Source of the DNA: an uncultured Gammaproteobacteria bacterium
GTDB taxonomy: Bacteria; Patescibacteriota; Patescibacteriia; 2-01-FULL-39-33
DNA: 64,000 nucleotides
Direction: 5' to 3'
NCBI GenBank assembly: GCA_964350585.1
Contig: CAYGKC010000003.1
Coordinates: 4,678-68,677, forward strand
The notes beneath the pieces are model-generated. The model saw only the letters and a program-made list of their open reading frames with translations, was not told the DNA's origin and ran no database searches. Positions 11,320-30,724 of the stretch are shown here, in pieces (position 1 is the stretch's first letter; every line of letters starts with the position of its first letter). Position numbers and translations under genes: made by a program.

Positions 11320-11875
11320 CTATTTTCCACTCAGCTCCAATTTTAATGAATTTTAGCTTAATTTTCCAATAGGAAACATTGGCATCTTTTCCTGAACCCA
11401 AATAAGTAAGCCTTTGAGTTCCAACCGTAACAGATGCCTGAGTATCGGAAGTCTCATCCAATGAAAAACTTAATGCCTTTGTCGTAAATCCTTGAAACAT
11501 TTGCGCCTCAGTATTTACATTTTCAAATGTACCTTCCTTTTTTCCCTCTATTTCCTTTGCCATTTTTTCTGTTACCATTGGCATTATATCGTCCAAATTC
11601 TTAAAATCAGCATCAGAAGAATAACTGCCATATCTTTCAGTAAAAGACATTGCTAATTGTTTTAACCCCAAAGGGTATGAACTTTCTTCCTTAACTCTTT
11701 CTGGACTTGATACCGGGAGATTTAATTCACTTTGGAATTCTATTCCCGTTTCAGTACCTTTATCCACCGGTCCCACCTGCTTCTTTGGCCAAAACAAAAT
11801 AACTAAAATTAAAATTATAAGAATTACTATTGCCAGAATGAGGGAAATAATAAATATTTTTTTCTTATTTTCCAT
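11297..11875 (-). CDS. membrane-anchored protein, possible VirB8-like (NTF2-like) T4SS component
   Basis: Single N-terminal TM (IFIISLILAIVILIILILVILFW), then a ~160-aa extracytoplasmic domain ending …GAEWKIDDAQWLQ, which is compatible with an NTF2-like fold. Sits immediately downstream of the VirB4 ATPase. Assignment is inferred from topology and position only. Confidence 0.3.
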   Translation of the reverse strand: MENKKKIFIISLILAIVILIILILVILFWPKKQVGPVDKGTETGIEFQSELNLPVSSPERVKEESSYPLGLKQLAMSFTERYGSYSSDADFKNLDDIMPMVTEKMAKEIEGKKEGTFENVNTEAQMFQGFTTKALSFSLDETSDTQASVTVGTQRLTYLGSGKDANVSYWKIKLKFIKIGAEWKIDDAQWLQ

Positions 11876-11883
11876 ATTATTTT

Positions 11884-13815: not shown

Positions 13816-14479
13816 AATTTAATTTATTTAAGTCAGCTAATTTCTCATTCCTTGAGGTAACGGGATTATAAGTTGTATAAAACAATTCAATAAGCGACTG
13901 CGTATCTAAAACGGTAGCTCTTAGTCCCATTCCTGAAAGTCCCATTAATATTTTATCCAACAATGTAAACAGTCCTTTCTTTCTTTCTAAAAATTGTTTC
14001 TGATTTAATTTGATTAGGCTTGTAGGGGATGCGACATCTCCCAACCTTTTCCAAAAACTCATTGATCTGCTAGTTGCAGGATCATACGGCACAACGATAA
14101 AAAACTTTTTTGTCATTATGTTTCCCATCTCCACCAATTCAGAAATATACTGCTTATACTCAGCAATTTGGAGCTTTAACAGGTCGTTTGTTTGCTTTTT
14201 CTCCTTCTCCGCAATATTTTTTAAATAGCCGTCTAGGTCTAATTTTCTGGATTGGATAAGTATCTGAAGCGGGCTGTCTAATAAGTTTAAAAATTGGACA
14301 TAACCTGCTATAATTGCGTTTTGCTCATCTTCAGATTTTAAAGAAAAATTAATACTAGAGACAAGTAAAACCGCTCTCATAGTGCCGTCTTTTAAAACAA
14401 CAGTATCATTCCTTATTTCAGCGATATGTAACCTGCTTTGCGTTGACGGTGTAGTCTGATTAGCTTTTGGATCTGCCAT
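13802..14479 (-). CDS. T4SS-associated protein resembling the N-terminal domain of VirB4/TrbE
   Basis: IRNDTVVLKDGTMRAVLLVSSINFSLKSEDEQNAIIAGYVQFLNLL…LQILIQSRK matches the hallmark pattern at VirB4/TraC N-termini (v-l-kDG…f…g.d.e..s.ee…a…L……l.i…R). Separate ORF ending 1-14 nt from the ATPase ORF start. Confidence 0.45.
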   Translation of the reverse strand: MADPKANQTTPSTQSRLHIAEIRNDTVVLKDGTMRAVLLVSSINFSLKSEDEQNAIIAGYVQFLNLLDSPLQILIQSRKLDLDGYLKNIAEKEKKQTNDLLKLQIAEYKQYISELVEMGNIMTKKFFIVVPYDPATSRSMSFWKRLGDVASPTSLIKLNQKQFLERKKGLFTLLDKILMGLSGMGLRATVLDTQSLIELFYTTYNPVTSRNEKLADLNKLNFEGF

Positions 14480-14483
14480 ATTT

Positions 14484-14915
14484 TTATTCTTCTCCCATAT
14501 AAACGCCCCCCGTATCCACTATTAGAGACAATTCTGATAGTTTGGAGGCTGATACTGACTTTTTAGATTTTATTCTTAAGGGCACATACTGATCTGTCGG
14601 ATTTTTTAGTGCAGCTTTTATTTCATTAATAGATAATTTTTTGCGCCACACCTTTAGCTTTGGGTTTTTTAGCGTAGCAATAAGGTTTAAAAGAAAAAGA
14701 TGGAAAACTTGTCCATTAATTTTAGCAAAAGCAAAAAGGCAAGTTATGCCAAAAACCAAAAGACCCGACAAAACAAAAAGCGAGAAATCAAAAATTTTAT
14801 AAAAAATAAATATTATGCCTAGACCAATAAGCAATTCTATGAACTGCCTGATGGTTATCGGGCCCATAATCTTATCTTCAACGTCCAAAAATTGAGGAAC
14901 TGTTACTTGTTGCAT
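14484..14915 (-). CDS. small inner-membrane protein, VirB3-like
   Basis: ORF of 143 aa with two adjacent TM helices (LLIGLGIIFIFYKIF; VLSGLLVFGITCLFAFA). Encoded just upstream of the VirB4 N-terminal-like and ATPase ORFs, which is the canonical VirB3-VirB4 arrangement. Confidence 0.4.
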   Translation of the reverse strand: MQQVTVPQFLDVEDKIMGPITIRQFIELLIGLGIIFIFYKIFDFSLFVLSGLLVFGITCLFAFAKINGQVFHLFLLNLIATLKNPKLKVWRKKLSINEIKAALKNPTDQYVPLRIKSKKSVSASKLSELSLIVDTGGVYMGEE

Positions 14916-14917
14916 TT

Positions 14918-16525
14918 TTAATGCCTTAATTGATTATTTAATTTCATAACCGCATCGAATTCTTCAATACTTAACGTAGGTTTACCGCTCACCAGTCTCT
15001 CCTTGATTACTTCATTTATATTTCTATTTTCTTCCATAGCCATTAATCCCAAAAGCCTGTAAAACCTGTTAATTTCATTTTTAAACCAAGCATTTACACC
15101 TTCCATTTTCCTTTCATAAGACTCATCTTCCAAAAGCTGTACTTTTTTGGTTATTTCTGAAGTAGCTTTATCAGGAGTTTCGGCCAATCTTCTAAATTCA
15201 ATAAGAGTCATTTGGCTTAATTCTTCGATTGGGCCGGTAAGTTTTTTGGCTATCCTTACGCCATCAAGCAAGGGCCTTCTAGTATTCTGAGCTTCTATTA
15301 TCCTTGGAGGAATTTTTTGCGTTGTCGGATAATGTACCGGAGAAGCTTGAGGCAAAATTTCTTCCTTCACTTCTTTTTTTTCTGTCTTTTCTATTTTGGG
15401 ATCATTATCAGTTTTTAGCTCAGCTTCTTTTATAATTTTATCAATTTCCTCTTGCGGTTTATTTATTTTTTCAAAATTTTCTTTCGGTTTAACTGCAACT
15501 TCTTCTTTTATACTATCCATTTTAATTACCGGCAGCCCGTCTTCTTCCTCTATTTTCATTGGCGGAGCATAAAAAACCTTCTTACTCAAAGCCTTTTGGC
15601 TGGACTTGGGAGCCTCAACAACAGCAGTTTCTTTAGGTTGTTCAACAACAGTAAAAGAAGTTGGCTCACCTTTTTTTTCATCTTGAATCTTTTGCGCCAA
15701 TGTTATTTTCTGCGGTTCTTTAACAACCTGTTGCGGTTTATTATTAGAAGGAGAAAGAATGGCCTTAGGCAGAACAGTTTTAGTAACAAGAGGAGTTACT
15801 TTAATTTCAGTTTTAACAAAGTTGCCTTTCTCATTCTGTTTATTCTTAACTATCCCTATCAAAGAATTGGCAGAATTTGAATCCAACTCCATTCCTCCGA
15901 TTTTTCTGCTTTTGGTAAGCGCATCCAATGTCTCTATCTCATCGCGAACATCCCTTAAATTCAAAATTATTATATTTTTAAGGCGCTTTGCCAACACATC
16001 ATCACCTTGATAAGCAAACTCTTTAATTATTATATCAGATAAAGCGTCATAATTATAATCTTCACTCGGTTTTACTGAATTATTTTTAATTTTTGCAATT
16101 TCTTGCTCGTCTTCAGCATCAAAAGACAAATTTCTTGCAATATTTTTTTGCGGATCAGAAATAAAATTAGTCAGATTTTGAGTTTCGGCTTCTATAACCA
16201 CATTTTGATCATCAGCCTTTTCTGATTTACTTAAAGATAATTCCGGCATCTGGCCTAATAAAAAATCAAATTTATCAACTATTTCCTTAACCGCTAGCCC
16301 GCCAAAACCCAACTTATTTTGTAAAAATAAAGGAAGGTCTTTTTTTGCTATAAATCCAAAAGCATATTCCAGAAAAACGCTTGCCGCTTTAATCCTGTAT
16401 TTTTTATCCAAATCGTTAAAAACAGATATAAAATCAGGCGAAGACATTTTTTGCTTCGCTGACATTGGCAACTGAGATAACTTATCTAATATTGAATCCA
16501 TTAAATATGGTTTTAAAATCTTCAA
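14918..16525 (-). CDS. hypothetical protein, K/E-rich, no TM; T4SS-locus member
   Basis: ORF of 535 aa with a central Lys/Glu/Pro-rich low-complexity region. Tightly packed in the operon, with 2-nt spacing to the next gene. Confidence 0.3.
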   Translation of the reverse strand: MKILKPYLMDSILDKLSQLPMSAKQKMSSPDFISVFNDLDKKYRIKAASVFLEYAFGFIAKKDLPLFLQNKLGFGGLAVKEIVDKFDFLLGQMPELSLSKSEKADDQNVVIEAETQNLTNFISDPQKNIARNLSFDAEDEQEIAKIKNNSVKPSEDYNYDALSDIIIKEFAYQGDDVLAKRLKNIIILNLRDVRDEIETLDALTKSRKIGGMELDSNSANSLIGIVKNKQNEKGNFVKTEIKVTPLVTKTVLPKAILSPSNNKPQQVVKEPQKITLAQKIQDEKKGEPTSFTVVEQPKETAVVEAPKSSQKALSKKVFYAPPMKIEEEDGLPVIKMDSIKEEVAVKPKENFEKINKPQEEIDKIIKEAELKTDNDPKIEKTEKKEVKEEILPQASPVHYPTTQKIPPRIIEAQNTRRPLLDGVRIAKKLTGPIEELSQMTLIEFRRLAETPDKATSEITKKVQLLEDESYERKMEGVNAWFKNEINRFYRLLGLMAMEENRNINEVIKERLVSGKPTLSIEEFDAVMKLNNQLRH

Positions 16526-16539
16526 AAATATTTACCAAG

Positions 16540-17466
16540 TTAAGACGCTAATAATTTATCCCATTCCTGATCACTCATTCCATATTCCTGCTTTGCTATC
16601 ATTTTCTCAATCTCAGTCATATCTTTTATTTGCTCTTTGGATAAATGATTTTTCTTGGTGTTTACAGTTTCCTTAGGAGCTACATAATTATTCTTTCTTT
16701 TTATCTCGCCTCTTGGGATAATTTCCCACTTGTCTTCCGCCAAGTCTATCAACTGATCAGGGTAGTTTTTCAAATTAGTGTAAATATTTAGAATATCAAA
16801 CAATTTTATCTTCTCTGCCTCTGAAATATTTCTACAGTTATTACCGTTTGCAATATAATCACTTAATTCAATAGTGGACAATACTCCTGTGCCTTTTTTT
16901 TCAATAAAATCTTTAAGCCAATTGGCAATCGTTGGAGCTGATTGCTTGTTTTCTAAAATTATATTTTTTTGCGTCAATTGTTCTTCATTTTGAAAAAGAA
17001 GCCTTATTAATTCGCTTTTAAAATTAATATCTTTCCTAAGGATATTAAAAATCCTTAAGTTAACAGCGTTTCTTATAATAAAATTTTCAGCCAATTCTTC
17101 CAGAACACCGCCCGCAAAAATCCTTCTAAGCATATCCTTTTCATCATTTACCGCCATATTTTTATTAGGATCAGCATTTAGGAAACTAATTCTTTTTTCA
17201 AGTGGCTTTACAACTTCTGCAAAAAATTCTTTTTCACAAGGTATAGCTTTTTCTTTATCCAAACCCTTTTCCTGAATAAGATAAGACAAAAAATCTTCAT
17301 AAGATAACCCGCCAACGACTAACAACAATAATGGAGCGTTCAAATCTACGCCGTATTTTTGGGATAATTTTGATATAGCGGAAATATTTCTTTCACTGTT
17401 AACAATAAACACCACTTCCGGATGCATTTGTCCAAATTTCCTTAATGCTTCTTCTAAAGTAATCAT
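16540..17466 (-). CDS. hypothetical cytoplasmic protein; T4SS-locus member
   Basis: ORF of 308 aa with no TM and no recognised motif. Operonic. Confidence 0.3.
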   Translation of the reverse strand: MITLEEALRKFGQMHPEVVFIVNSERNISAISKLSQKYGVDLNAPLLLLVVGGLSYEDFLSYLIQEKGLDKEKAIPCEKEFFAEVVKPLEKRISFLNADPNKNMAVNDEKDMLRRIFAGGVLEELAENFIIRNAVNLRIFNILRKDINFKSELIRLLFQNEEQLTQKNIILENKQSAPTIANWLKDFIEKKGTGVLSTIELSDYIANGNNCRNISEAEKIKLFDILNIYTNLKNYPDQLIDLAEDKWEIIPRGEIKRKNNYVAPKETVNTKKNHLSKEQIKDMTEIEKMIAKQEYGMSDQEWDKLLAS

Positions 17467-17475: not shown

Positions 17476-20400
17476 TTATTTTTTTGGTATGACATTACTG
17501 CCATGTTCTGCCACTGTCTTATTATCAATAATCGGACCATTTTCAGTTTTTCGGCCAACTTTCTCATTTAACAATGCGATAACGGTCGATAATTTTGAAA
17601 CATCCCCTCCGCCTTTTTCATAAGCAGCGATACCGCGTTTTAATTCAAGAACCAAATAAGCTTGAGGTCCGCTTAATTCGCGAGGCAAAGCAGCTAAAGA
17701 ATCGGTTAATGTTTTTATAGCGCCTGTGGATTCAGTAAGTGCTTTAACCGATTTGAATTGCATTTCTGTTTGACCGTTAGTAGAATAAAAACTGCCCCTG
17801 CTTATATCAGTTAAGAAATCTGCGTCTGTAGCCCCATTTTCTATAACCTTAATTAGATTATCAATGGCTTTTTTCATTTTTGTAGCATCTTCAGCTACAG
17901 CCTGAGAAACCCAATTTTCATGGGCATAGGGCTTATAATCATCAAGAACGGTATCGACAAGATTAGGTTGCGGTTTTTGAGGCTGAACTGAACCAATAGT
18001 ATCAGTATATTTTTCATTTGCTTTAGTATCTTCACTATCTTTATTTTCGTATGCTTTTTTTCTTTCTTGTTCTCGTCTGTTTTCAATGTCACTGATACTA
18101 CTTAAACCATAAGTTCTTGCGTTAATAGCAGCTAACTCTAAATCTAATTTTCCTTGTATTGCTCCTTTTGCACTATTGAGATCAATATTTGCCTGATATT
18201 CTTTTAAAAATCTATTTTTCTCTGCTTCAATGCGTTCTTGTTCTTTTGCAGTTTTTCCACTCTTACTAGCATTTAAACTATCTTCTACTCTTGTTACATG
18301 GCGGGATTCTTCATCTGCTCTGATAGTTTCAGAATTTATTTTATGAGTTTCTATTTTATTTTGTCTATCAGTATATGCAGTCTCTTTATGGAAATCTTCC
18401 TTGGCTTTAGCTAAATCTGCATCGGAAACTTTTCCTTTCTTAACAACAGATGACATTGATCTATATGCACCTCTGCCATTTAAGAAGTCTAAGAAATCAC
18501 TTGGCACCATACCCTTTGAAATTTTACCTGATTGTACATTGTCAATTTGTGATATTTCACCTTCTGCCTTAACTCTTGCAGCATAAGCTGGATCGCTTTT
18601 TATCCTTTGATCAATAGCTAAATCTCTTCCCTTTTCAGACGTAGCAACAATATTTTTTGTATTTTGGCTTGCTTCATCAATTTTTTTACCTTCTTCTTCC
18701 CTATTCTTTTGGCGTTTTGAGCTTTGATCACCTAATGCCATTTCAAGCAAACGTCCTCCTCCTGTCATATAACCCACAGCTAATGCGCCCAATCCCAAAC
18801 CTCCAGTAGCCACACCTCCTGCTACAGTACCAACGGTAGCTGTAACTGCAAGAGCTCCTGCTTTAACATTTTTAGCTAAATCCGTATTTGTAAATTCCCC
18901 CCATGCCGCTTTTGCTTTATCACTGCCAAGACCCATTTTACCCATTGCTTTTGATAGCTTTTCTTTTCTTACCTTTCTCCTGCCTTCCAAAACATCAGTT
19001 CGCCACTGTGAACCAAACGCTCCAAGCTTGGTCAAACCCTCAGACCCTGACAATTTGCCAAGACCTTTTGAAATTCCGCTGGCAAGTGCAAGAGATCCTG
19101 TCCCAGCCTTCCCTGCGGCTTTTTTGCCTACCCATGCGCCCGCTCCCAATCCCGATTTTGCCAATGATTTTCCAAATTTCATAGGCTTCTTAGCCTGCTG
19201 TTGCAACCAACTCATCCCAGAGTTAGCAACGTTTGCTCCGACAACTCCGCTTCCTTTGGCAAAATTCAAACAAACAATCAAAGCGCCAATAACTAAAGCC
19301 GTATTAATAATGCCTTCAACCGTCAAGCCTGCTGAAAGTGTTCCTTTGTTCAAATCTGTAATTTCCTGTTTATCAGGAACCTGACCCCCTAAAGAACTAC
19401 GTATATCCCTTGTAGGATTATTATTAAGAGCTCTCTCAGCTGAGTTACCCCCATGACCCATCATCATAAATGAAATCCATAAAAAGAAAACCAACACAGG
19501 ACCGACTGTCAAATACTTCACAAAGTTATTAAACCAATCAGAAGAATACTTTTCTGTTTGCTTGATTAATTTTAGAAAAACATATGCCGGAGAAAGAATA
19601 GTCAAAAACAGCAATACAACTATTCTGGCAACGAGTATGGCAATAATTGATACAATTACAATTACAACTATAACTGCCACTATTATGGCGTAAATAAGAG
19701 CGGCAAAAATATTAGTCATTTCTATACCAGCCTTATTTTTGGATATACCCTCATTCATAGGATTCGCTGTCCATTCCTGCCACCTAGTAAGTTCCGGCAA
19801 TTTTAGAGCTGACAAAACAATATTTCCACCTTGAATATTGGCAAAAGCGCTGGCGAATGAAAGCATTAACACTTGTGATATATCTATGGCAATACCCACA
19901 AAAAGCTTTGAAAAATTAATAAGTATTGCAGCGATTAGAATTTTAGGCAACATCGCCTTATAATGATAGTCTTTTTTATTGAGAATAGTCCCGATAGCCA
20001 CAACCATCAGAAGAACAATAAAAAAGTTATTGAAGAGATTTCTAACAACCTTCCAGCCTTCAACGACAGCAGCAGTATTATTAACATTTATAGGATAACT
20101 CATCACCGTTAGCATTGCCCACATTAACCTAGTTATTATCCAACCAAGTGCAGCAAATATTATATAAAGAATATATGCGAGAAGGTTTATAATTATATCT
20201 ATTGCTTCTAATTCTCCCACGTATTTACCAGACGGAGATTTTTCAATAGCTTCTTTTTCTCTTTTAGCAGTGTTTAAAAACTCCTCTTGTTCCTTAGTTA
20301 AAGGTTGCTTTGATTCTAATTCGGTAATCCATTTATTATATTGAATAATTCTGCTTTCATCATTTCTAACAACATCATCAGGTACTGAAAGCCAACTCCA

Positions 20401-20568
20401 CAAATCAACTGCTGCTAAACCAGGTCCAATGTTGGGTATTAAATATTGAAACCAACTATTTCTAATATCTTCTACTGTTATCGCTGCTCTAACATTTATC
20501 GGAAAACAAAAATTTAAAAATAAAACTACTGATATCAATCCAATTAATATTTTATTTTTATTTTTCAT
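17476..20568 (-). CDS. large polytopic membrane protein, VirB6/TrbL-like, with long Gly/Ala/Lys-rich and coiled-coil C-terminal extension
   Basis: Signal peptide MKNKNKILIGLISVVLFLNFCFPINVRA. At least six hydrophobic helices lie between aa ~120-440. A ~590-aa hydrophilic tail has GKxGxG repeats and charged coiled-coil-like segments. Confidence 0.45.
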   Translation of the reverse strand: MKNKNKILIGLISVVLFLNFCFPINVRAAITVEDIRNSWFQYLIPNIGPGLAAVDLWSWLSVPDDVVRNDESRIIQYNKWITELESKQPLTKEQEEFLNTAKREKEAIEKSPSGKYVGELEAIDIIINLLAYILYIIFAALGWIITRLMWAMLTVMSYPINVNNTAAVVEGWKVVRNLFNNFFIVLLMVVAIGTILNKKDYHYKAMLPKILIAAILINFSKLFVGIAIDISQVLMLSFASAFANIQGGNIVLSALKLPELTRWQEWTANPMNEGISKNKAGIEMTNIFAALIYAIIVAVIVVIVIVSIIAILVARIVVLLFLTILSPAYVFLKLIKQTEKYSSDWFNNFVKYLTVGPVLVFFLWISFMMMGHGGNSAERALNNNPTRDIRSSLGGQVPDKQEITDLNKGTLSAGLTVEGIINTALVIGALIVCLNFAKGSGVVGANVANSGMSWLQQQAKKPMKFGKSLAKSGLGAGAWVGKKAAGKAGTGSLALASGISKGLGKLSGSEGLTKLGAFGSQWRTDVLEGRRKVRKEKLSKAMGKMGLGSDKAKAAWGEFTNTDLAKNVKAGALAVTATVGTVAGGVATGGLGLGALAVGYMTGGGRLLEMALGDQSSKRQKNREEEGKKIDEASQNTKNIVATSEKGRDLAIDQRIKSDPAYAARVKAEGEISQIDNVQSGKISKGMVPSDFLDFLNGRGAYRSMSSVVKKGKVSDADLAKAKEDFHKETAYTDRQNKIETHKINSETIRADEESRHVTRVEDSLNASKSGKTAKEQERIEAEKNRFLKEYQANIDLNSAKGAIQGKLDLELAAINARTYGLSSISDIENRREQERKKAYENKDSEDTKANEKYTDTIGSVQPQKPQPNLVDTVLDDYKPYAHENWVSQAVAEDATKMKKAIDNLIKVIENGATDADFLTDISRGSFYSTNGQTEMQFKSVKALTESTGAIKTLTDSLAALPRELSGPQAYLVLELKRGIAAYEKGGGDVSKLSTVIALLNEKVGRKTENGPIIDNKTVAEHGSNVIPKK

Positions 20569-20578: not shown

Positions 20579-23500
20579 TTAATATCCCGCTTCTATTAAA
20601 CTACTGCTTATGGTTGAACTTGCACTTGCATTCCAATTATCTTTAACAGTTATCGTAATAGTAGCCGGATTAGGAGACATTTCATTAGGATTATAATAAT
20701 GATACATCACAAAAGGATTATTTTCATCTATTCTTTGCCTTAACTTTACGCCTGCAACCGAATCTTCCGATCCGTCACCCCAATTAATAGTGTAAGAAGT
20801 AAGCGGAAGCTGATCCTTGTCAACTTTTACATTAAAAGAAAGTCGAAGTGTCTGGCTTGAAGTAGAAACTTTAATATTAGTAATCAACGGCTTGATTTTA
20901 CAGGGCACACCCAAAGCCGTGTTAATAAATCTCCAGTTAACATCCCTGTCACCAGGATTCAAACCGGAACAATATTCATTTGGCAAAGACCAATTTGCTC
21001 CTTTTACTTCATCATAACTACCTTGATCCCATCTGTTATTGTCTTCCTTCCACACCCATACGCCATAACTTTGGGCGAATAAATTCTTTAATGCTTCCTC
21101 TTTTACTGGTTGACCGGTTCTTGGCTGATAAGGAGCTTCAGTTTTAAAATTCGGCGTTTCCCATAAAATTGGCTGTTTTGTGTAATCATCATCAGTTCTC
21201 CTAGAATCCCATAAGATAGGATTTTGAAAATTATTTGACGGCGCGACAAGTGATCCAAAAGGCTTGTAATCTGCTCCGTAACCGTCAAATTTATAGCCAA
21301 GATTTGAATAAATCATATTTTCGTAATAGCATTTTCCGGTAATTTCATCCCATGTGTTACCCTTTTCTCTGCAAGTAGTAGAACCATTAATAGCTGAATT
21401 AGTACAAGCAGCAGTAACGCCATCATTTAAACCTTTCAGGCAATAAGGATTTGTAAATTGTGGATACTTATCCGTGGTGGTTGAAAAGGCAAATTGAGAT
21501 CCGCTACTGAGCCTGTCCACCCATGCTTTATTTTTACCTGATGGCGTAGCTACCTGGACAATTTTATTGCAATAATGAATATCAAACTCACTATAAGCCG
21601 ATCCAGTCATAAGCAGTCCTAACACAATACCCCCAGCTTTTACATTCCAAGCCAGACCCAAAATATCACCTGGCACGCTTGGATTAGGATCAGTAAAATA
21701 AGAAGCATATTTTGGATCCTGATCGGTAACCACTTTTGCTCCCAAGGAAGTTCCTGTTCCGCCAGCATCCAATCCGGCCATAGACATTATCTGACCTATA
21801 AGGTCTCCACCCCCGTCACCCGATCCGCCGGACATTATTTTATTTTCTACATTATCCCAACTTTCAGGGAATAATAAGGCCGTTCCCGCTCCATCGCCTC
21901 CAAACCAACTAGTTGCAGCTAGTCCCCATCCTCCCCAACGACTGTTATCAGTTAGATTGCCTATACGTGGTTCTAATTCACCTCCATTGTATGTTTCACA
22001 TTTATCACCCAAAAGAAATTTCAAAAAAGATGAACAGATAGTATTTTCCAAATTATTTAAACCCAATAAATCAAAAATAATTCCGAGTGGATCTTGTCCA
22101 TCAGCGCCAAAATGACTAACATTATTGCGACCCATATGGACGTTAGCAATTCCACCTCCCAAACCAAAACCGTCTAAATTTCCACCAACACCGAGAACAA
22201 TTCCAGCATAATGAAAAGTATTTCTATTTTGAGGTTTACCGCCCAAAGTAAAACCACTAAGTACTTCACTAAATAAAGTCGAAAGTTTATTAAGAGCGTT
22301 TGTTTCCGGCTTTGATATAAATGGATATCTAAATAGAGCGGAAGCATTTATTAAATCTGAATTTTCAGATTCAAAAACAGAATACTGTGCAGTTTCACCG
22401 CCTAAGACATTTAAATTAAGTCCTGGAGCAAGATTATTTAACATTTGTCCCATACCGCCACTAGTTACTTTGGTAGTTTCTACATAAACTCTAATTGTTT
22501 CTTTAGTGGTGGAAACGCAATAATATAGCGGAGATCTCTCTCTATATCCACCCGAATACTCATCCACAATATCGCCTTTAATTTCATCAACCGGCCACCA
22601 CTGCAAACACACCTGGGGATTCTTCGGATCCCAAGCCAAGCAATAACCGTACCAACCATAGTAAAATCTTCCATCTTCTGAGTATTGGCAAGACATCGCA
22701 TTTTGATCTGGATAAATTCTACAACTTCTAGAAATAGTAGACTCTTCTTTAGTTAAAATATCGGTTAAACCAGTAAAAGCATTTAACTGCGAAACTTTAG
22801 GAACAGGATTTAAAACAGGCTTTAGGGAAATATCGTCAAAAAGCGAACTTCCGCTTATCCTGCAAGCCGTACCATAATTTATGTTATATTTTTTATCATC
22901 AAGTAAGTCATTACATTCTTTCTGGTCTAAACTATTATTAAAATTAATCAATTTTAAACAAATTGTAGAGGTTGAAGGTGTAAACTTTAGCGTTTTCTTT
23001 GTCCAATTAATTCCTTCACGCATACTGATAACTCTCCCAGGCCTTTGATTACTACATTCTGAACCTTCAAAAACCCATATTTCAGCAGAAGTGGTGCTAA
23101 GCAAGTCTAAGGTGTTAAGCCAAGCGCTTAAATAATATTCTTGTCCTTTTTCAACATCAATCGGTTCCGATTCCAACTCGTTTGGTCCGTGCAATCTCAA
23201 ATAGCCCGCATCCTGTTTTCTGTATAGATAATTTCTTTCAATCGCATATTTATCGGGACCCCAACCAGATGCATCCAAATCCGAAGATGATGCAGACATT
23301 GTCCAACCTAACGGTTCGGCTGAAGCTGAGACAGTAGATTCAAAATTACCGTTTGAAACACTTGCAGATTGCCCTTCCTGTGTCATCTCTGCAAAGGACA
23401 AATAATTAGGCACGGAGTAACCTGTCAAAAATTGGAAATTAGAAGAATTAGTTGTTATAGGTTCATTGTTTTTTTGGGTAAAGGAATCGCAAGTTCTGTC

Positions 23501-26500
23501 GTCATAGTCCATTTTTTCACATAAACCAACTCTTAAACAACTGTCCTGACTCTGGAATCGAAAATCTGCCGCCGTACTTGTGGTGGAATCACTGTCTTTT
23601 TTATAAGTGGTGCAATACAGCCAGTTCTTGCAAGTTCTGTCGGGCAGAACCTTAAGCAGTACGCTGGTATCTTTGGGCTCATCTGTTGAAGCCTTAAGAG
23701 GTTGCTGTTTATTGCCAATATAATCGGAATATGTTTTTGAAGAATTGAAAATCAAATATTTATTTCGTTCTTTAATTAATTCATCGTTTGAATCTGAATC
23801 ATATGAATAATTTATGCTTGATCTTTCATTAAACAGCACGCAACCCGTCTTGTAATCAACAAGGCCGTTGCAACCTGAACGATTTACATTGGTAGATAAA
23901 GCGTAATACACTCCCGCTCGAGTAACTACAGTACTTGTACTTGAAAGATTAATTTTACAAGTTTTAACGTTATCATCCTTTGCCTTCACATAAAAAGTAG
24001 TTGTAACATTGCCAAGCGGATGATAAATATTACAAAAAGCAGAAGCGGCAGTTGTGGTAACAAATCCTCCTGATGAAGAATAAAGGTAATTAGATTCTAT
24101 AACCAAGGTTGATGAACTCTTATAATTCAAATTAGGATAAATTTCAGTGATAGGATCGATATATTCGCTGCATCCGTTTTTATTATCCTGACATAAACCC
24201 ACCCAACCGTTATATTTAATGTTGCTGTAATTATTTATTACAAAAATTGTTGATGATCCTGTTAAATTATTAATAGGACCGATCGGCTGATATTTGTTTC
24301 TGACTGATTCATAACCCGTGCCGAATGTTTGATCGGGAGTAATCATACACGCTTCGTCAGTTCCTTTTTTGTACCATCCCGCCGCCAAATCTCCCGCTCC
24401 TCTGAATTCGCAAAGTTTCCTGGGATTTTTAAAATAATATAAGGAATTATTGCCGGCAAATTGTTCGCACCATACCTCGTCTGCAGCGCATAAATCAGTC
24501 GCATACCTATCAGGATCATTCTTTAAAAATACAGTGCTATATCCTAGAACTTCGTCATATTGGTTAATTTTGGGCAAACCCAAAGCCATACATCCTTTAT
24601 CTTGCAAACCACAACTATATGCTGGGCTATTAACAAGATATGCTTTTTCGTAAGGTCGGACGGTAATTTGATCATTATATCCTTTGCTATTATCAGGATT
24701 AAATATAAATCCTTGATATTTATCGTAATTATGAGTATCAATAAGTTCTTCGCAACCCGCAGCTTCTTTTCTGCACAAATTGGCAAATGACTTCAAATAA
24801 GCGCTTAATCCGTCTTGAGTTTTGTACGCTTTACAGCCAAGCATATTGCCAGGAACACATCTGTGGTTATCAGTACCGGGATTTTGATCATAACAAATTT
24901 GATAAGCAGCACTGGAATTAGTCTGTGACTGAGCATAGTTTACTTTACCAGCCGGATCATTTAAATCATTGTCGCAAGAAAACGGAGTAAACCAGGAATT
25001 CTCAACCAGATACACTTTATCTCTCATTTCTTTCAACTGAATATTATCCAAGAAAACTTTTTCAGAACCAATATTAAAAACTAAATTTTCAACCTCCGGC
25101 TGATCCCATGTTACAAAGACCGGACCTACTTCAAAATATTTCCATTCACCTGTAATTTCAGGCATAGAAAGATTAATATCACCATCATTTTTCAAAGATG
25201 AAACTGCAAAGTAGTCATTTGGATTAGTAGAGCTGTTGAACTTTATTGATTCGAATCGGAAATTGCCTGTTGAACTTGCTTTAGCCCAGAAACTGAGCAT
25301 ATATGTCCTATTTTTATGTACGGCAACTTCCTTTTTAATTTGTCCACCAGTATTTTTTATGGAGTATCCCCCTTGATATGTCGCTTCTGAACTTGTAACC
25401 GCTCCAATCCAGCCTTCAAGATTTTCATTGCTGAATTGACTTATTGGGAATACGTTTCTGATATTATTGCCATAATTTCCGGTGTAAGCCCGACAACCGG
25501 AAACTGAGGCGCTGCACATAATTCCTTCGCCTTTCATAGCCATATATATGCACTCATTAGTAGCACTATTCCACCAGCCTTTTGTACAGTTTGCCTCTGC
25601 TTCTGTAAGCGTTTTTTCTGTTTGTGTTCTTCTATACGGATGGCAGTTATCAGAAATTGTAACAGTCATTGATAAAAGACGATAAGTGATGTTTCCGCCA
25701 GCATCGTAAAACTGCCTGCAATCTGGATTTGAAGCCATATTCTCTTTGGTACAAAGTCCATTTTCTAAATTATGTGAAACTGCATCAGGATCATTGCAAA
25801 TTCCAATACCGCTTGTATTATAGGAAATGTTTGTGCAGGGCGCGCTTGGATCTTTATTACTCCTTTTTAGTTTGTAAACCTTTAACTGATAACCGGTCGT
25901 ATCTTCACCCTCCCAAGTATAGTAAGTGCCATCATCCGTAGAAGGTTTTTGGCATGCTTTTATTCGCACAAAATATTCTCTTTGTTCCGCTCCCCTGCCT
26001 AGCTCATCAAGGTTTGTAAATTCATCACATCCCGCATAAGCGGCCGAACAGTATTTTGGCACGTTATTAGCAATAAACTGGACAAAGGTCGACGAAACAA
26101 AATAAGTTTTTTCTTGTTTATATACCTGGTATCCCGCACATTCCGCAGGGCACAAATCAATGCTTTCAGCCACTCCGGGCACTTCCGGATCGCCGTTTAC
26201 GGGCTTATAAATATTGCAACCTACCTCATCAGAAGTACAAACTGAAGCGTATTTTGAACAAAGTTTATTTTGGTTAAGAAGAATATCATATAAATTCGAG
26301 CTGTTAGCCCAAATATTACCTTTCTTATAGCAATTTAAATAATCAGGCGCTTTCCTTAAAAACGTCAATTGCTCTGCAGGCCGTTTTGAAGGATTATATT
26401 CTGTGAAAGAAGAAGGCAACTCAGAATTGTAGTTTATTTCTTCTAACTTTATATCATCAAAATATACCATCGTTTCTGCTAAGCCGGATATCACCCGAAT

Positions 26501-29500
26501 ATCGTATTCATTGGCTCTGTAATCTTTCGCCATCACTGCGACTGCCTGAACTTTTTGCCATTGATTGATTCTACTCTTGTCAAAACCGGCTGACATAATT
26601 TTATTATTCGGTGACAATAAAAATAATTCTACCGACCCGCCACCTAAATTACTAACAGTGCTTGAAGCAATATATACCCAGCCGGACAAGGCATATTTAC
26701 TTCCTCTTTTAAGATTTATAATATTTTCAGCTCTGGGAACTTCCACAACGGCATAGTCAGCGTTACATGAATCAGCTGACAAAGTACATCTAATTCCCAA
26801 AGAATGTGAACCGCTATTTTTTATGCTATTGCTTCGGCTGAATTCTACGTGTCTGCCATGCTCGCTGTCTTTCTTCCATACATCCACTCCGTCACCTGCT
26901 CCGTCTTCAAATCCCCCGTTTGGCACCAAATTACTGCCCAAGCCTGATTTCAATCGAATAAATTGCGAACAGCCGTCAGAAACACTATTGCAGGTAGGGG
27001 CATTTTTTGTCAGATAAATTTCATTTTCTGTCGCATTGATACTGGCTGTATTACTGGCATTACCTAACCAAATACTGTTAGCTCCGCAATCATCCTTTAT
27101 TTTTTTAATGGTAAAATCATCAAAATAAACATCAGCAGTAGTGCCTGCTTTCAATCGGATTTTTATTGTTGTAGTATTAAAATTTCCAGAGTTAAAATAC
27201 CATATTTTTTCATTCCAGCCTGCACTAAAAGAATATAGTTGGTATTCTTCTTTTTCTTCGCCTCTTATTATTGAAACAATAATTGCTCCATTATTATCTA
27301 AAACGCCAGTGCTTCCCGATAAATAATTGCCTCTAACAAAGAAATTTAACTGATAATTTTTGTCTTTTTCAAGAGGTATGTTTTCAAGCGATACCCAGGT
27401 ATTGGCATCTTCTGCTATGACTGGGGCATTATTTCCGATTATTCTTAAAGCTGAACTAGTACCTCTTCCTTCTCCCGCAACTCTGTAAAAACGGTTATAC
27501 ATATCATAGTTGGCATTATCAAAATTCCAGATTGCAGGAATCCAGTCATATTCATCCTTTTGTTCAAAACCTCCGTTAAACGTTCTAAGCAGATCATTAT
27601 TGTCTATGCAAAGCTCTAAATAACATCCCGAGCTTCCAGGCGTTGAGGTGCAAGATACCTGAGGCGTCCCAAATGAGCTGAATCTACATGTACCATCAAT
27701 AATATTATAAGTACAATTGGTAGATGAAGTGCTGTCACAAGCTGATTGCGTACAGGGTTGAGACATCCTAAGCATTCCGTCCGTGCTTATCTGATGCCAC
27801 TTATAAACAACTTTTCCTTCAAGAGTTAGAGTTTGTGAAGTGGAAGTGATTCTTGTTATTACGTTTGGAGCAAGATGACGCCAAACATTGTTTACCGTAT
27901 CAAGTAACATACTATACCAACGGCATCCTACATTAGTAGAATTACAATTGCCGAAATCCAGAGTGTTCATCAAATATGATTGTTTTTTACCGTCAGATGC
28001 CGAAAAAGTCTGGCAAGTATTGAATCTTGGTTCGCAAGCAGTTGGAAAAGTCCAGATTCTTCTTTCTTCGGTACAATAGCCGTAAGCTTGGCAATTATTA
28101 TCAATATCCTGTTGTAAACACTGTTGTTCATCTGCACAATATTCTCCTCTCATAATACTTCCATCAGGTGAATCTCGCGTTGTGTTATAACCTCCATAAC
28201 CCTGCCTTCTGCAAAATAATTCTGGCACTTTTAAAGTCCAATATGGATTAACCAAACCGTAAAAAATACTATCTGGATTTTCAAAACCGGCAGCAACCTC
28301 TTTTAGTGTATAATTTCTATCGCTTCCATTTGCTTTTATTGCTGCAAACTCCCATCCCACAGGAATAATTCTGTATTTTCTAAGTATAATTATCGATCTT
28401 AAGGGCAATTCACTGTCTAAATTGTCATTTCCCACGGCTGGAGCAAATAATCTTTCTCCTATGCCAAGAGTATCAGACAAAACTTCATATAACTGCTTCT
28501 TTTCTTTTATTGCTGATAGTAGTTTTTGATCAATTACGCAATCAGTTGGACCCGGATTCTTTCTGGTTGAATCAGAACATAAAGCAAGCTTTGTTAAAAT
28601 ATCGTAAGATCCTCCTTCTTTAAAGGAATAATTCTTAAGCTCCGAAAACCTTTCTTTAGCTCCCGTAGCTCCTTCGCTTTGTGGAGATGCCAACGGATTT
28701 AGCAATGCGGATAAATTTGGAAGAGCAAAACCGCTTGAACCGCCGGAACTGCTATCGGAAGAACCTTTGAATAATCCATTTTTAAAATTATTCAACAACT
28801 GAGCAGCTAAAGTATTTAAAAATGTTTCAACAAAATCAAAAATTGTTCCGGTATATATATTATCTTTTTTGCCGACGTTATCAGGATCAACTAAAGCCTT
28901 ATGCAAAGCTTCCCTAACAGTAGTTCCCGGAGTAAGAACTTTGCCGGCAAAATCTTTTAGATCCTTAAATTTGGCCGCCTTTGCAGCTTCATCTTCAGCC
29001 TCTTTGACTTTTTTATTTACATATTCATATGATTTTCCTTGTATTAACAAAAAGGTTGAAATATCGTTTTCTCCAGGTTGAAGAGAATTATTGTACTCAA
29101 AAGAAAAATCAGCTCTTTGGATTGCTGAATTCCAATTTGTCATCATCGTAGAAAAAGTACATCTGACCTGTCTTGGAACTTTATAATTAATGCTTGTTTG
29201 AATCGCTAACCGCATACTTAAATTAGGGCGACATAAATCGACACCATAAGATTGCCCTACTTGATCAATAAAGTCTCCCAAAGCGCTGTCTGCGGCATTT
29301 TCCAAATATGCTCCCCAACCTTCGGTAATAAACAAAGGCTTTTGTCCCTTTCCTCCTGAAGCCACCCAGGTAGCGGTATCTTCGGCCAACTGTCTTGAAA
29401 AGGTACTTAAAGAAACCTTAAAAGCTCCTGCCATTGCTTTTGTAGCCTCCTCCTTTATTGCCTCCCACCATTCTCTTCTCTTTTGATCCCTAATCATCTG

Positions 29501-29845
29501 TTTCATTTGTTTCTCAGCACCAACTTGTGTTGCAGCATCAGTACACTGCTTTTCAGCTTCTGCTAAAGCAGTTGTTCTAGCATGGCATTCAAAACCAACA
29601 AGTGGTACAGGTTCGCATGGAATCGCAGAAGCCAGTATAAGTGATTCGTTACATCTCAATATTAATTCTTCAACAGGAATAGCCCAAGCGTCTGGAAGAA
29701 ATGTCAAACTCTCATCAAACCTTGAAATTGCTAAATTTCTGCTTTTATCTAAAGCTTCAATAAAAGCCTTAGCATTATCAACAAAAATAAAACTAAAAAA
29801 AATAGTTAAAAATAAAGTTAAAATAATTTGATATCTTTTCATCAT
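20579..29845 (-). CDS. giant (3088 aa) secreted Cys-rich multi-domain surface protein with CBM-like beta-sandwich modules and C-terminal PKD-like domain
   Basis: Uninterrupted 9.27-kb ORF with signal peptide MMKRYQIILTLFLTIFFSFIFVDNAKA. Very many Cys residues. Recurring (N)GGFE/NGNFE motifs typical of CBM4/9/22-type modules (LRTFNGGFEQ, VPNGGFEDG, SNGNFES). C-terminal …YTINWGDGSEDS… resembles the PKD-domain WDFGDGS motif. No C-terminal TM. Confidence 0.6.
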   Translation of the reverse strand: MMKRYQIILTLFLTIFFSFIFVDNAKAFIEALDKSRNLAISRFDESLTFLPDAWAIPVEELILRCNESLILASAIPCEPVPLVGFECHARTTALAEAEKQCTDAATQVGAEKQMKQMIRDQKRREWWEAIKEEATKAMAGAFKVSLSTFSRQLAEDTATWVASGGKGQKPLFITEGWGAYLENAADSALGDFIDQVGQSYGVDLCRPNLSMRLAIQTSINYKVPRQVRCTFSTMMTNWNSAIQRADFSFEYNNSLQPGENDISTFLLIQGKSYEYVNKKVKEAEDEAAKAAKFKDLKDFAGKVLTPGTTVREALHKALVDPDNVGKKDNIYTGTIFDFVETFLNTLAAQLLNNFKNGLFKGSSDSSSGGSSGFALPNLSALLNPLASPQSEGATGAKERFSELKNYSFKEGGSYDILTKLALCSDSTRKNPGPTDCVIDQKLLSAIKEKKQLYEVLSDTLGIGERLFAPAVGNDNLDSELPLRSIIILRKYRIIPVGWEFAAIKANGSDRNYTLKEVAAGFENPDSIFYGLVNPYWTLKVPELFCRRQGYGGYNTTRDSPDGSIMRGEYCADEQQCLQQDIDNNCQAYGYCTEERRIWTFPTACEPRFNTCQTFSASDGKKQSYLMNTLDFGNCNSTNVGCRWYSMLLDTVNNVWRHLAPNVITRITSTSQTLTLEGKVVYKWHQISTDGMLRMSQPCTQSACDSTSSTNCTYNIIDGTCRFSSFGTPQVSCTSTPGSSGCYLELCIDNNDLLRTFNGGFEQKDEYDWIPAIWNFDNANYDMYNRFYRVAGEGRGTSSALRIIGNNAPVIAEDANTWVSLENIPLEKDKNYQLNFFVRGNYLSGSTGVLDNNGAIIVSIIRGEEKEEYQLYSFSAGWNEKIWYFNSGNFNTTTIKIRLKAGTTADVYFDDFTIKKIKDDCGANSIWLGNASNTASINATENEIYLTKNAPTCNSVSDGCSQFIRLKSGLGSNLVPNGGFEDGAGDGVDVWKKDSEHGRHVEFSRSNSIKNSGSHSLGIRCTLSADSCNADYAVVEVPRAENIINLKRGSKYALSGWVYIASSTVSNLGGGSVELFLLSPNNKIMSAGFDKSRINQWQKVQAVAVMAKDYRANEYDIRVISGLAETMVYFDDIKLEEINYNSELPSSFTEYNPSKRPAEQLTFLRKAPDYLNCYKKGNIWANSSNLYDILLNQNKLCSKYASVCTSDEVGCNIYKPVNGDPEVPGVAESIDLCPAECAGYQVYKQEKTYFVSSTFVQFIANNVPKYCSAAYAGCDEFTNLDELGRGAEQREYFVRIKACQKPSTDDGTYYTWEGEDTTGYQLKVYKLKRSNKDPSAPCTNISYNTSGIGICNDPDAVSHNLENGLCTKENMASNPDCRQFYDAGGNITYRLLSMTVTISDNCHPYRRTQTEKTLTEAEANCTKGWWNSATNECIYMAMKGEGIMCSASVSGCRAYTGNYGNNIRNVFPISQFSNENLEGWIGAVTSSEATYQGGYSIKNTGGQIKKEVAVHKNRTYMLSFWAKASSTGNFRFESIKFNSSTNPNDYFAVSSLKNDGDINLSMPEITGEWKYFEVGPVFVTWDQPEVENLVFNIGSEKVFLDNIQLKEMRDKVYLVENSWFTPFSCDNDLNDPAGKVNYAQSQTNSSAAYQICYDQNPGTDNHRCVPGNMLGCKAYKTQDGLSAYLKSFANLCRKEAAGCEELIDTHNYDKYQGFIFNPDNSKGYNDQITVRPYEKAYLVNSPAYSCGLQDKGCMALGLPKINQYDEVLGYSTVFLKNDPDRYATDLCAADEVWCEQFAGNNSLYYFKNPRKLCEFRGAGDLAAGWYKKGTDEACMITPDQTFGTGYESVRNKYQPIGPINNLTGSSTIFVINNYSNIKYNGWVGLCQDNKNGCSEYIDPITEIYPNLNYKSSSTLVIESNYLYSSSGGFVTTTAASAFCNIYHPLGNVTTTFYVKAKDDNVKTCKINLSSTSTVVTRAGVYYALSTNVNRSGCNGLVDYKTGCVLFNERSSINYSYDSDSNDELIKERNKYLIFNSSKTYSDYIGNKQQPLKASTDEPKDTSVLLKVLPDRTCKNWLYCTTYKKDSDSTTSTAADFRFQSQDSCLRVGLCEKMDYDDRTCDSFTQKNNEPITTNSSNFQFLTGYSVPNYLSFAEMTQEGQSASVSNGNFESTVSASAEPLGWTMSASSSDLDASGWGPDKYAIERNYLYRKQDAGYLRLHGPNELESEPIDVEKGQEYYLSAWLNTLDLLSTTSAEIWVFEGSECSNQRPGRVISMREGINWTKKTLKFTPSTSTICLKLINFNNSLDQKECNDLLDDKKYNINYGTACRISGSSLFDDISLKPVLNPVPKVSQLNAFTGLTDILTKEESTISRSCRIYPDQNAMSCQYSEDGRFYYGWYGYCLAWDPKNPQVCLQWWPVDEIKGDIVDEYSGGYRERSPLYYCVSTTKETIRVYVETTKVTSGGMGQMLNNLAPGLNLNVLGGETAQYSVFESENSDLINASALFRYPFISKPETNALNKLSTLFSEVLSGFTLGGKPQNRNTFHYAGIVLGVGGNLDGFGLGGGIANVHMGRNNVSHFGADGQDPLGIIFDLLGLNNLENTICSSFLKFLLGDKCETYNGGELEPRIGNLTDNSRWGGWGLAATSWFGGDGAGTALLFPESWDNVENKIMSGGSGDGGGDLIGQIMSMAGLDAGGTGTSLGAKVVTDQDPKYASYFTDPNPSVPGDILGLAWNVKAGGIVLGLLMTGSAYSEFDIHYCNKIVQVATPSGKNKAWVDRLSSGSQFAFSTTTDKYPQFTNPYCLKGLNDGVTAACTNSAINGSTTCREKGNTWDEITGKCYYENMIYSNLGYKFDGYGADYKPFGSLVAPSNNFQNPILWDSRRTDDDYTKQPILWETPNFKTEAPYQPRTGQPVKEEALKNLFAQSYGVWVWKEDNNRWDQGSYDEVKGANWSLPNEYCSGLNPGDRDVNWRFINTALGVPCKIKPLITNIKVSTSSQTLRLSFNVKVDKDQLPLTSYTINWGDGSEDSVAGVKLRQRIDENNPFVMYHYYNPNEMSPNPATITITVKDNWNASASSTISSSLIEAGY

Positions 29846-30724
29846 TTAATTATTTCCCAGTTTATCTAAAAACATCTTTTTAATTTCTTCATCTGAAATC
29901 TCATTTATAACTCCGGCAGGCGCTCCGTTTTGTATCATTAATGATTTTATTTGCGCTCCGGTTAAATTATTTAAGTCATCCATTGAATTAATTTGCAGTT
30001 TGGAAATATCAATTTCTCCAGGCACTATATATCCTTGGCTAGAATCACCGCCAACAACCGTTGTGCCAGCCTGCGCAGAAATATTTGCCAACTCGGGATC
30101 TTCCGCAAGCATTTCTTGAAATAGTTGTATTAAATCACTGTCAGTTAACTCATCAAGATCACTTTGACTGACACCTGCAGTAAGTAAAACTTCTCTAATC
30201 ATTTGAGGAGTAACAACCGGAGCGCCAGTTTCAGGCATTTGTCCAAAAATCGGCACATTTGCAGTTCCTGTAGAATTACCGAAATTAAAGCCCCCAGTGC
30301 ACTGCTGGCCCTGCGGACAATTCGGATCAGTGCCTGCAGTAACTTCATTGGCGTCGTTTATTCCGTCGCCATCAGTATCCTCTAGAAACGGACTAGTGCC
30401 GTAAACAGTAGTTTCGTGATAATCAGAAAGGCCGTCGCCATCAGTATCGGTAACTGTATCAATTGCCATTGTCTGGCTCTGTTCAATAGGATTTTTATCC
30501 AAAAAAGAAAAAGGATTTCTTATTCCATTTACTATTTCGTAAAAACCGAGACCGAAGGCGAATATGCCGACAATTACAATAACAATAATATTAAGCCTTT
30601 GCTTATTATTGCCGGCTGTTTCCTTCTTTGGGATGTTTTCAACGCCACTTTCAGCATTTATGCCATCATAAAAATCCCCTTGTGCGGGTAAATTCTCAAA
30701 GTCATTTTGATTGCCACCTTCCAT
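29846..30724 (-). CDS. membrane-anchored protein with thrombospondin-type-3/dockerin-like Ca2+-binding Asp-rich repeats
   Basis: TM IIVIVIVGIFAFGLGFY. Repeats DTDGDGLSDYHE… and DTDGDGINDANE… follow the DxDxDG calcium-binding pattern. First gene of the operon; its stop abuts the giant ORF start. Confidence 0.5.
   Translation of the reverse strand: MEGGNQNDFENLPAQGDFYDGINAESGVENIPKKETAGNNKQRLNIIVIVIVGIFAFGLGFYEIVNGIRNPFSFLDKNPIEQSQTMAIDTVTDTDGDGLSDYHETTVYGTSPFLEDTDGDGINDANEVTAGTDPNCPQGQQCTGGFNFGNSTGTANVPIFGQMPETGAPVVTPQMIREVLLTAGVSQSDLDELTDSDLIQLFQEMLAEDPELANISAQAGTTVVGGDSSQGYIVPGEIDISKLQINSMDDLNNLTGAQIKSLMIQNGAPAGVINEISDEEIKKMFLDKLGNN

Follow-up and report, generated by a model that had tools for sequence, protein, structure and literature searches.

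Patescibacteria account for much of the diversity of bacteria; they live in dependence on host cells, and hardly any have been cultured. For Saccharibacteria, a type IV secretion system (T4SS) and several glycan-binding envelope proteins were reported to be essential for epibiotic growth (PMC10633639), and in the sole genetically tractable Patescibacterium the function of the T4SS was described as 'completely unknown' (PMC11665869). Gram-positive T4SSs normally depend on surface adhesins; those of the PrgB (pCF10) and CnaC (pCW3) type are large, Sec-exported products of monoderm-type T4SS clusters, which attach to polymers in the envelope of the partner and enable contact-dependent transfer (PMC12857230). 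A phylum-wide survey of Patescibacteria T4SSs found no PrgB-like adhesin and did not mention the protein analyzed here (PMC12102498). This protein of 3,088 amino acids (aa), hereafter the giant, is encoded in a T4SS operon within a 64-kb stretch of contig CAYGKC010000003.1 (assembly GCA_964350585.1); the whole stretch is called the window. The giant is best explained as an extracellular, lineage-specific accessory to the chromosomal, MPF-FATA-like (mating-pair formation, FATA class) T4SS of Buchananbacteria/Falkowbacteria-type Patescibacteria. It would act as a surface adhesin or scaffold associated with the T4SS, and two of its large domains lack detectable relatives.

The giant resembles PrgB/CnaC-type adhesins in its size, its apparent Sec export and its place in a monoderm-type T4SS cluster, but it carries neither a polymer-adhesin (GbpC/PAD) domain nor an LPxTG motif, and no PrgB structure was matched in a profile search against PDB. 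It is also 2–3 times larger, Cys-rich and equipped with modules of the carbohydrate-binding module (CBM) 4/9/22 type, and its T4SS is chromosomal and relaxase-less. By analogy, it would be a functional counterpart of the Gram-positive mating-pair adhesins, not homologous to any known one. Compared with described CBM4, CBM9, CBM16 and CBM22 modules, those of the giant sit in a 3,000-residue Cys-rich scaffold with no recognisable glycoside hydrolase attached. The extended VirB6 proteins of Rickettsiales (Anaplasma VirB6-4, 4,322 aa) are likewise giant, tied to a T4SS and found in an obligately host-dependent bacterium with a reduced genome (PMC7648143), but VirB6-4 is polytopic with hydrophilic extensions, whereas the giant has no transmembrane (TM) segment and is a separate gene beside a VirB6-like one. 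Within the candidate phyla radiation (CPR), large, exported, putative attachment proteins comprise the Cys-rich proteins of Peregrinibacteria (PMC4736985) and the FhaB giants of Patescibacterium danicum (PMC11809585). Only the former share the Cys-richness; these proteins contain FG-GAP/integrin-like or FhaB domains, are reported to be strain-variable or to have no full-length homologues, and were not reported from a T4SS cluster. Identity with the P. danicum FhaB-type giants was rejected, as their domains are different and conserved homologues are absent there (PMC11809585). Phage receptor-binding proteins and tail fibres with CBM-type modules also recognise host surfaces by jelly-roll lectins and combine variable modules with a conserved scaffold (fold matches 5w6h, 7xyc and 9euf), but the giant lies in chromosomal housekeeping DNA with no phage context.

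The giant is one uninterrupted open reading frame (ORF). Stops would be expected about once per ~13 codons given the local base composition, and the probability of a stop-free frame of this length was ~1e-105. An identical protein was present on three contigs (NCBI, ENA and Logan assemblies), and of 64 complete homologous ORFs in other genomes 63 spanned 2,249–3,872 aa. Because the identical protein stood on these records and the homologous ORFs were colinear with it, a chimeric misassembly was ruled out. The giant is a real gene under selection, with a frame that remains intact over 26–60% identity in 63 of the 64 complete genomic copies. An earlier, sequence-only reading of the window had described a single ORF with a signal peptide, without a membrane anchor and with very high Cys content, and had proposed that homologue lengths be compared. 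The first three statements were borne out, and the length comparison is that given above. The Cys claim stood relative to the neighbours, as the 88 Cys of the giant (2.85%) are ~3–4 times the content of neighbouring ORFs (roughly 0–2%, mostly 0–1%), but was overstated in absolute terms, the family median being 3.46%.

The N-terminus of the giant (MMKRYQIILTLFLTIFFSFIFVDNAKA, followed by F) showed n-, h- and AxA c-regions, the AxA pattern was kept among homologues, and cleavage at this site would be expected. The only other weakly hydrophobic window was Gly-rich (aa 2728, Kyte-Doolittle score 1.68). An LPxTG-like motif ([LIV]Px[TSA]G) was absent throughout the giant, which ends in ...SSLIEAGY, and a polytopic membrane domain of the VirB6/TrbL kind (five or more TM helices) was found in the neighbouring 1,030-aa protein and not in the giant. 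A lipoprotein was also considered and was rejected, there being no Cys near the signal peptide. An extracellular, Sec-exported protein is the best reading of these features.

Cys residues were concentrated in the linkers between the CBM-like modules (4.7–5.5%) and nearly absent inside the modules. A C-x6-C-x-x-[FY] motif was observed 12 times in the linkers, against 2.4 ± 1.5 in 2000 shuffles (maximum 8). Cys counts were even in 91 of 119 homologues, as expected were all Cys disulfide-paired, and the giant may hold ~44 disulfides. Two DsbA-like thioredoxins (Thioredoxin_4/DSBA) are encoded in the window, at 3825–4520 (+) and 48476–49291 (-). The first has a hydrophobic N-terminal segment and lies directly beside the pilin genes, and at one related locus (L005) a DsbA gene closes the T4SS cluster; these proteins could plausibly oxidise the Cys-rich giant.

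When 5.8 billion proteins were searched, more than 130 colinear giants were obtained, every one of them from Patescibacteria (labelled Buchananbacteria, Falkowbacteria, Parcubacteria or 'Patescibacteria group'). With the N-terminal domain alone, 1,356 representatives of 50%-identity clusters were matched at E ≤ 1e-3 and 882 at E ≤ 1e-30; among the best 150 of the 1,356 matches the alignment started within about the first 350 residues, usually at ~50–150, and most of the proteins were 2,300–3,900 aa long. Scanning one genome per GTDB species placed relatives in 518 species, the named ones being Buchanan-, Falkow-, Uhr- and Parcubacteria, which we take to form the GTDB class ABY1. Members of the family share the N-terminal motifs xDTATWxASGGxGQxP, RKYRIxPVGWE, DPxWVLK and YCADEQxC, the alternation of Cys-rich and CBM regions, a CRxYP...WWPVD module and a C-terminal WGDG sandwich, and the giant has each of these features. 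This is a large uncharacterised Patescibacteria family, conserved over its full length in more than 500 species. Full-text searching, confined to one literature collection, found no published description of it. Many records that carry the gene (loci L011–L013, L016, L021 and others) are titled 'uncultured Gammaproteobacteria bacterium' (third-party-annotation metagenome-assembled genomes), apparently a placeholder or mislabel.

To map conserved blocks, 119 homologues were aligned onto the giant. A universal N-terminal block (aa ~100–650) was followed by an insert (aa ~650–940, 46/119), a universal core (aa ~940–2450), a variable region (aa ~2450–2850) and a conserved C-terminus. Against eight close homologues, the most conserved windows were aa 1201–1500, in Cys-rich region A, where identity to the closest reached 79%, and aa 301–600, in the N-terminal domain; the least conserved were CBM module 2, CBM module 1 and aa 2501–2700. 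Module 2 had 25% identity to its counterpart in a homologue that is 54% identical overall (P0002). In another, from Buchananbacteria (P0003; 54% identical over aa 80–2449), aa 2450–2916 (window ~21098–22498) were replaced by unrelated sequence, and such a replacement directly after 2,370 residues of this similarity suggests module swapping at the C-terminal cassette. A conserved scaffold, fast-evolving lectin modules and a swappable cassette together make up the signature expected for a surface-recognition protein. Beyond what the sequence-only reading contained, the analysis revealed this large conserved family, in which the N-terminal domain and the Cys-rich linkers, not the CBMs, are the best-conserved parts, together with the swappable cassette and the nearby VirB2-like pilins and DsbA-like oxidoreductases.

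Four CBM4/9/16/22-type jelly-roll modules were found in the giant, three of them family-wide, alternating with the Cys-rich linkers. Their borders were set by NGGFE/NGNFE/NENLEGW ... (Y/F)(F/L)D(D/N) motifs, and the fold was that of CBMs, a beta jelly roll of about 130–180 residues. The whole giant scored 23.5 bits against Pfam CBM_4_9 (PF02018), below the gathering cut-off of 25.9 bits, which module 3 passed when scanned alone; modules 1 and 4 gave no Pfam match when scanned singly. A family profile searched against PDB had matches at three separate positions to structures of CBM22, CBM4 and CBM16 (E = 1e-9, 2.5e-5 and 4e-3), with module 3 matching the CBM22 structure 4xup (E = 1e-9) and profile positions 661–802 (module 2) also matching CBM structures. 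The CBM4/9/22-like modules of the sequence-only reading were thus confirmed, module 1 by motifs only. No internal repeats were detected by self-BLAST at E ≤ 1, and the modules were related solely at the motif or profile level. By their fold, the modules may bind glycans of the host envelope.

The N-terminal domain contains the motifs A(Y/E)DTATWIASGGKGQKP, xDTATWIASGGKGQKP, RKYRIIPVGWE, DPxWxLK and YCADEQxC, and invariant or near-invariant charged residues at D156, D186, E499, D533, D572 and E594 and at R489 and R492. It was not matched in Pfam, NCBIfam or PDB by profile search. An AlphaFold2 (AF2) model of the N-terminal 660 aa was poor and largely helical (29 sequences; predicted local distance difference test, pLDDT, 57), with only aa 410–540 confident, and no fold match was obtained with it in Foldseek against PDB (best E = 2.2). 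The Cys-rich regions, too, were without a match in Pfam, NCBIfam or PDB. These two large conserved domains without detectable relatives are targets for structural work.

The second AF2 model, of aa 1889–3088, reached a pLDDT of 65 and a predicted template modelling score (pTM) of 0.60, both predictions resting on shallow alignments (27–29 sequences); CBM module 4 was its confident jelly roll. Long hairpins were predicted in or near the variable cassette (aa 2440–2462, 2544–2571 and 2741–2766). At the C-terminus, seven strands formed a sandwich (aa 2987–3079, pLDDT ~80–89), in which the motifs QLPLxxYxIxWGDG ... HxY (HYY here) ... DNW were conserved. Scores there were below the Pfam thresholds for PKD domains (PF00801 / PF18911; PKD_4 13.7 bits, cut-off 27, E = 0.066) and for Big_9 (18.2 bits, cut-off 23.6, E = 0.005). 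The 'PKD-like' C-terminus that had been proposed is therefore a reasonable description of the predicted shape, for which the sandwich and the WGDG/HxY/DNW motifs speak; membership of the PKD family is not established by these sub-threshold scores. Fold searches with this model yielded no match assignable to the sandwich, the hairpin cassette or the Cys modules, as jelly-roll matches dominated.

In the window the giant is flanked, within a T4SS operon, by the genes of a TSP3-type Ca-binding protein and of a VirB6-like one, as had been stated. The label 'VirB6-like' is qualified, because it is based on the weak TrbL_3 match of an orthologue; a sequence search of this neighbour against PDB gave no match. 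The stop codon of the TSP3 gene abuts the start of the giant (0-nt gap). Among GTDB loci, a TSP3-like gene was upstream of the giant in 60/62 (97%; median gap 30 nt) and a VirB6-like gene downstream in 44/51 (86%), the latter also in 56 of 57 metagenome loci (98%). The distance from the stop of the giant to the VirB6-like start had a median of 719 nt (57 loci); at L005 the gap holds a 168-aa gene (18824–19330). Within 10 kb downstream, PrgI was found in at least 28/39, TrsD in at least 25/39 and VirB4 in at least 24/39 metagenome loci with ≥8 kb of sequence, counts that are lower bounds because the flank examined ends at 10 kb. Four relatives of 26–38% identity were also compared, three of which kept the order from KsgA to VirB4 and the fourth (L004) only as far as the VirB6-like gene. 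Other syntenic genes were KsgA (upstream in 48/62, 77%), MFS (major facilitator superfamily, 28/80), FemAB (21/80) and LeuRS (leucyl-tRNA synthetase). No unit of the locus is tighter than the TSP3–giant–VirB6-like trio.

It is judged probable, if not strongly so, that the giant is exported by Sec, stapled by disulfides and acts together with the monoderm-type T4SS as a scaffold that binds host glycans. The signal peptide would route the protein through Sec. Nearby membrane-anchored DsbA-like oxidoreductases would then oxidise its 88 Cys, and the Cys-rich linkers would become rigid spacers. As gene adjacency suggests, the N-terminal domain may tether the giant to its own T4SS via the TSP3 protein, the VirB6-like channel protein or both. 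The fast-evolving CBM modules and the swappable cassette would attach to host-envelope glycans and determine host specificity. The T4SS channel and the VirB2-like pilus would in this way be held against the host, and the macromolecule transfer needed by auxotrophic episymbionts would follow. Among the roles put forward by the sequence-only reading, a surface fibre, adhesin or host-binding appendage is the most consistent with the lectin-type modules, their fast evolution on a conserved scaffold and the near-universal VirB6-like linkage.

Several observations weigh against this scaffold. Toxins and phage receptor-binding proteins contain CBM folds as well, and the VirB2-like pilins that are present could supply host contact themselves. 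The N-terminal domain, with neither a match nor a good model, leaves room for a catalytic activity. The giant has no anchor that would retain it on the cell. At the distant locus L004 no VirB4 was in view downstream, and at many distant loci 0.5–3 kb lie between the giant and the VirB6-like gene. Synteny also reaches housekeeping genes (KsgA, as above), and part of the linkage could therefore be general colinearity within the class instead of functional coupling.

Encoded within the T4SS operon in more than 500 species, this conserved lectin-bearing giant is a concrete candidate for the host-contact element that had been missing, and the ligands of its CBM modules could predict hosts and aid cultivation.

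An unlikely alternative, and the most novel one, is that the giant is an integral part of the T4SS, a stalk, sheath or tip for the pilus or a substrate, which replaces the missing VirB5/7/9/10 analogues of a monoderm system. It would be anchored N-terminally to the VirB6-like/TSP3 module, and exchangeable lectins and the cassette would dictate the host, so that this alternative shades into the best explanation. The near-universal and tight VirB6-like linkage argues for it, as does the stronger conservation of the N-terminal domain and Cys-rich scaffold over any lectin module. The pTM of the C-terminal 1,200 aa suggests packed domains rather than beads on a string, and tubular structures were described at the parasite–host interface of another member of the phylum (bioRxiv 10.64898/2026.06.21.733656). 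However, nothing resembling a T4SS component was detected in the giant with Pfam, NCBIfam or PDB, the VirB2-like pilins are encoded separately, nothing indicates oligomerisation, and the family is seemingly limited to one part of the phylum, whereas the T4SS is phylum-wide (PMC12102498). If true, a rigid, disulfide-stapled stalk would supply the 'outer' architecture that this T4SS lacks and would also determine host range for an entire uncultured class.

We consider it improbable that the giant is secreted to act as an enzyme or toxin on the envelope of the host, with the CBMs targeting either the N-terminal domain or a pore-forming cassette of Gly-rich hairpins. CBMs are classically appended to glycoside hydrolases, and giant genes of predatory bacteria were tied to the degradation of cell walls (bioRxiv 10.1101/2023.11.21.568195); in the N-terminal domain, acidic and basic residues are invariant or nearly so. 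No catalytic domain, the usual companion of CBMs, was found in the giant with Pfam, NCBIfam or the family profile against PDB. The Gly-rich cassette, with predicted 23-residue hairpins, is missing from most family members and therefore cannot be the core function of the family. Fold searches with the C-terminal model did return Cry and Vip toxins and iota-toxin Ib besides the phage structures named above, but the jelly-roll module dominated these matches and the shared beta-sandwich explains them.

Still less probable is a general envelope or S-layer-type protein unrelated to the T4SS, whose location would simply follow from the conserved order of genes in small colinear genomes. Housekeeping genes (KsgA, MFS and LeuRS) are also syntenic, and there is no direct evidence of an interaction between the giant and T4SS proteins. 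Against it, linkage within the trio exceeds that of KsgA, MFS and FemAB, the genes abut or overlap in the window, and neither Cys-richness nor a mass of 340 kDa is typical of S-layer proteins. Finally, the sequence-only reading had called the giant the lead cargo of the operon, although it is the second gene and not the first; a substrate of the channel is barely credible because the giant has its own Sec signal and no VirD4 coupling protein or relaxase is encoded in the window, a monoderm cell leaves no second membrane to cross after Sec, and 340 kDa with ~44 disulfides is implausible for a channel. In favour of a substrate stand its operon position and the precedent of pertussis toxin, a Sec-exported T4SS substrate but of diderm bacteria.

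Table 1. Coordinates in the window of the giant, its regions and the adjoining T4SS genes (residue numbers refer to the giant unless a neighbouring protein is named; TM, transmembrane)
Feature	Position	Strand	Observation
Giant ORF	20579..29845	(-)	ATG start, 3088 codons/aa, zero internal stops; mature form ~340 kDa, isoelectric point 5.1
Sec-type signal peptide, aa 1-27 (AKA, then F)	29765..29845	(-)	Read from sequence; sole strong hydrophobic window
Family-defining N-terminal domain, aa ~100-650	27896..29548	(-)	In 119/119 homologues; 14 Cys, 13 invariant
CBM-like module 1, aa ~752-915 (NGGFEQ ... YFDDFTIKK)	27101..27592	(-)	Motifs only; aligned in 46/119, closer relatives only
CBM-like module 2, aa ~975-1136, hypervariable	26438..26923	(-)	CBM_4_9 24.1 bits, E 5e-5, just under cut-off
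Cys-rich conserved region A, aa ~1133-1460 (GCDEFTNLD, FYTWEG, CHPYRRT, GCRxYTGN), 18 Cys	25466..26449	(-)	Nearly invariant columns
CBM-like module 3, aa ~1473-1606	25028..25429	(-)	CBM_4_9 28.3 bits, E 2.6e-6, scanned alone
Cys-rich conserved region B, aa ~1601-1895, 14 Cys, several C-x6-C motifs	24161..25045	(-)	
Small beta domain and Cys-rich region C, aa ~1896-2150 (PDRxCxxWLxC)	23396..24160	(-)	AF2 strands pLDDT 60-78, then low confidence; conserved columns
CBM-like module 4, aa ~2164-2343 (SNGNFES ... LFDDISLKP)	22817..23356	(-)	AF2 jelly roll, pLDDT 75-92
Universal small Cys module, aa ~2366-2445 (CRxYP ... GYCL ... CLxWWPVD ... PLYYC)	22511..22750	(-)	Invariant columns; in 79/79 metagenome loci
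Lineage-variable cassette, aa ~2450-2850, Gly-rich here	21296..22498	(-)	Aligned in just 18-44/119 homologues
Conserved C-terminal region (PFGxxxP, LFAxSYGxWxW) and Ig/PKD-like sandwich	20609..21295	(-)	Alignment, AF2
Upstream partner, 292-aa membrane protein (single-pass), Ca-binding repeats of TSP3 type outside the cell	29846..30724	(-)	TSP3_bac E 5e-13; TM aa 46-64 of this protein
Downstream partner, 1030-aa VirB6-like polytopic protein	17476..20568	(-)	Signal peptide, ~7 TM segments, long hydrophilic tail; 10 nt past giant stop
Rest of operon: 308-aa protein, 535-aa protein, PrgI/VirB3-like, TrsD-like, VirB4, 192-aa protein (1 TM), ComF	10585..17466	(-)	
Accessory genes: DsbA-like, T4SS_pilin and SLT fusion, second T4SS_pilin	3825..6329	(+)	

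The operon runs from 30724 to 10585 with all genes on the (-) strand and gaps of -23 to +14 nt, in the order TSP3 protein, giant, VirB6-like, 308 aa, 535 aa, PrgI/VirB3-like, TrsD-like, VirB4, 192 aa and ComF. The best promoter-like site on the (-) strand was just upstream of the TSP3 gene (30779–30751), in a window where counts of such sites were not above chance. The VirB4 ATPase scored 358 bits against the CD1110 family, above the NCBIfam cut-off. RadA lies on the (+) strand near the pilin genes, with RecG adjoining on the (-) strand, and the remainder of the window consists of housekeeping genes. The ComF, RecG and RadA neighbours, together with the class assumed above, fit the published observation that ABY1 T4SS loci adjoin comF, recG and radA (PMC12102498). 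An origin from a mobile element or phage was rejected, given the housekeeping context and the lack of a relaxase and coupling protein.

The soluble 308- and 535-aa proteins (14918–17466 (-)) had no Pfam or NCBIfam match; they were kept between the VirB6-like and PrgI genes family-wide and may be unrecognised cytoplasmic T4SS parts. VirB4 is split (11884–14479 (-)), with a TrsD-like N-terminal fragment (225 aa) that overlaps the ATPase (643 aa) by 14 nt, and relatives have the same arrangement. The two pilin genes on the (+) strand (4524–5513 and 5517–6329) are tandem paralogues with identical first 40 residues, both T4SS_pilin (VirB2-like, PF18895), and in the first the pilin domain is joined to an SLT lytic transglycosylase domain, giving a pilin/VirB1-like fusion. 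The LeuRS gene (34158–37721 (-), 1187 aa) carries NUDIX (aa 438–530) and Ser_hydrolase (aa 627–798) domains inserted between the editing and anticodon-binding domains, and at locus L004 (3087–6263) a Ham1p-like domain stands in place of these inserts.

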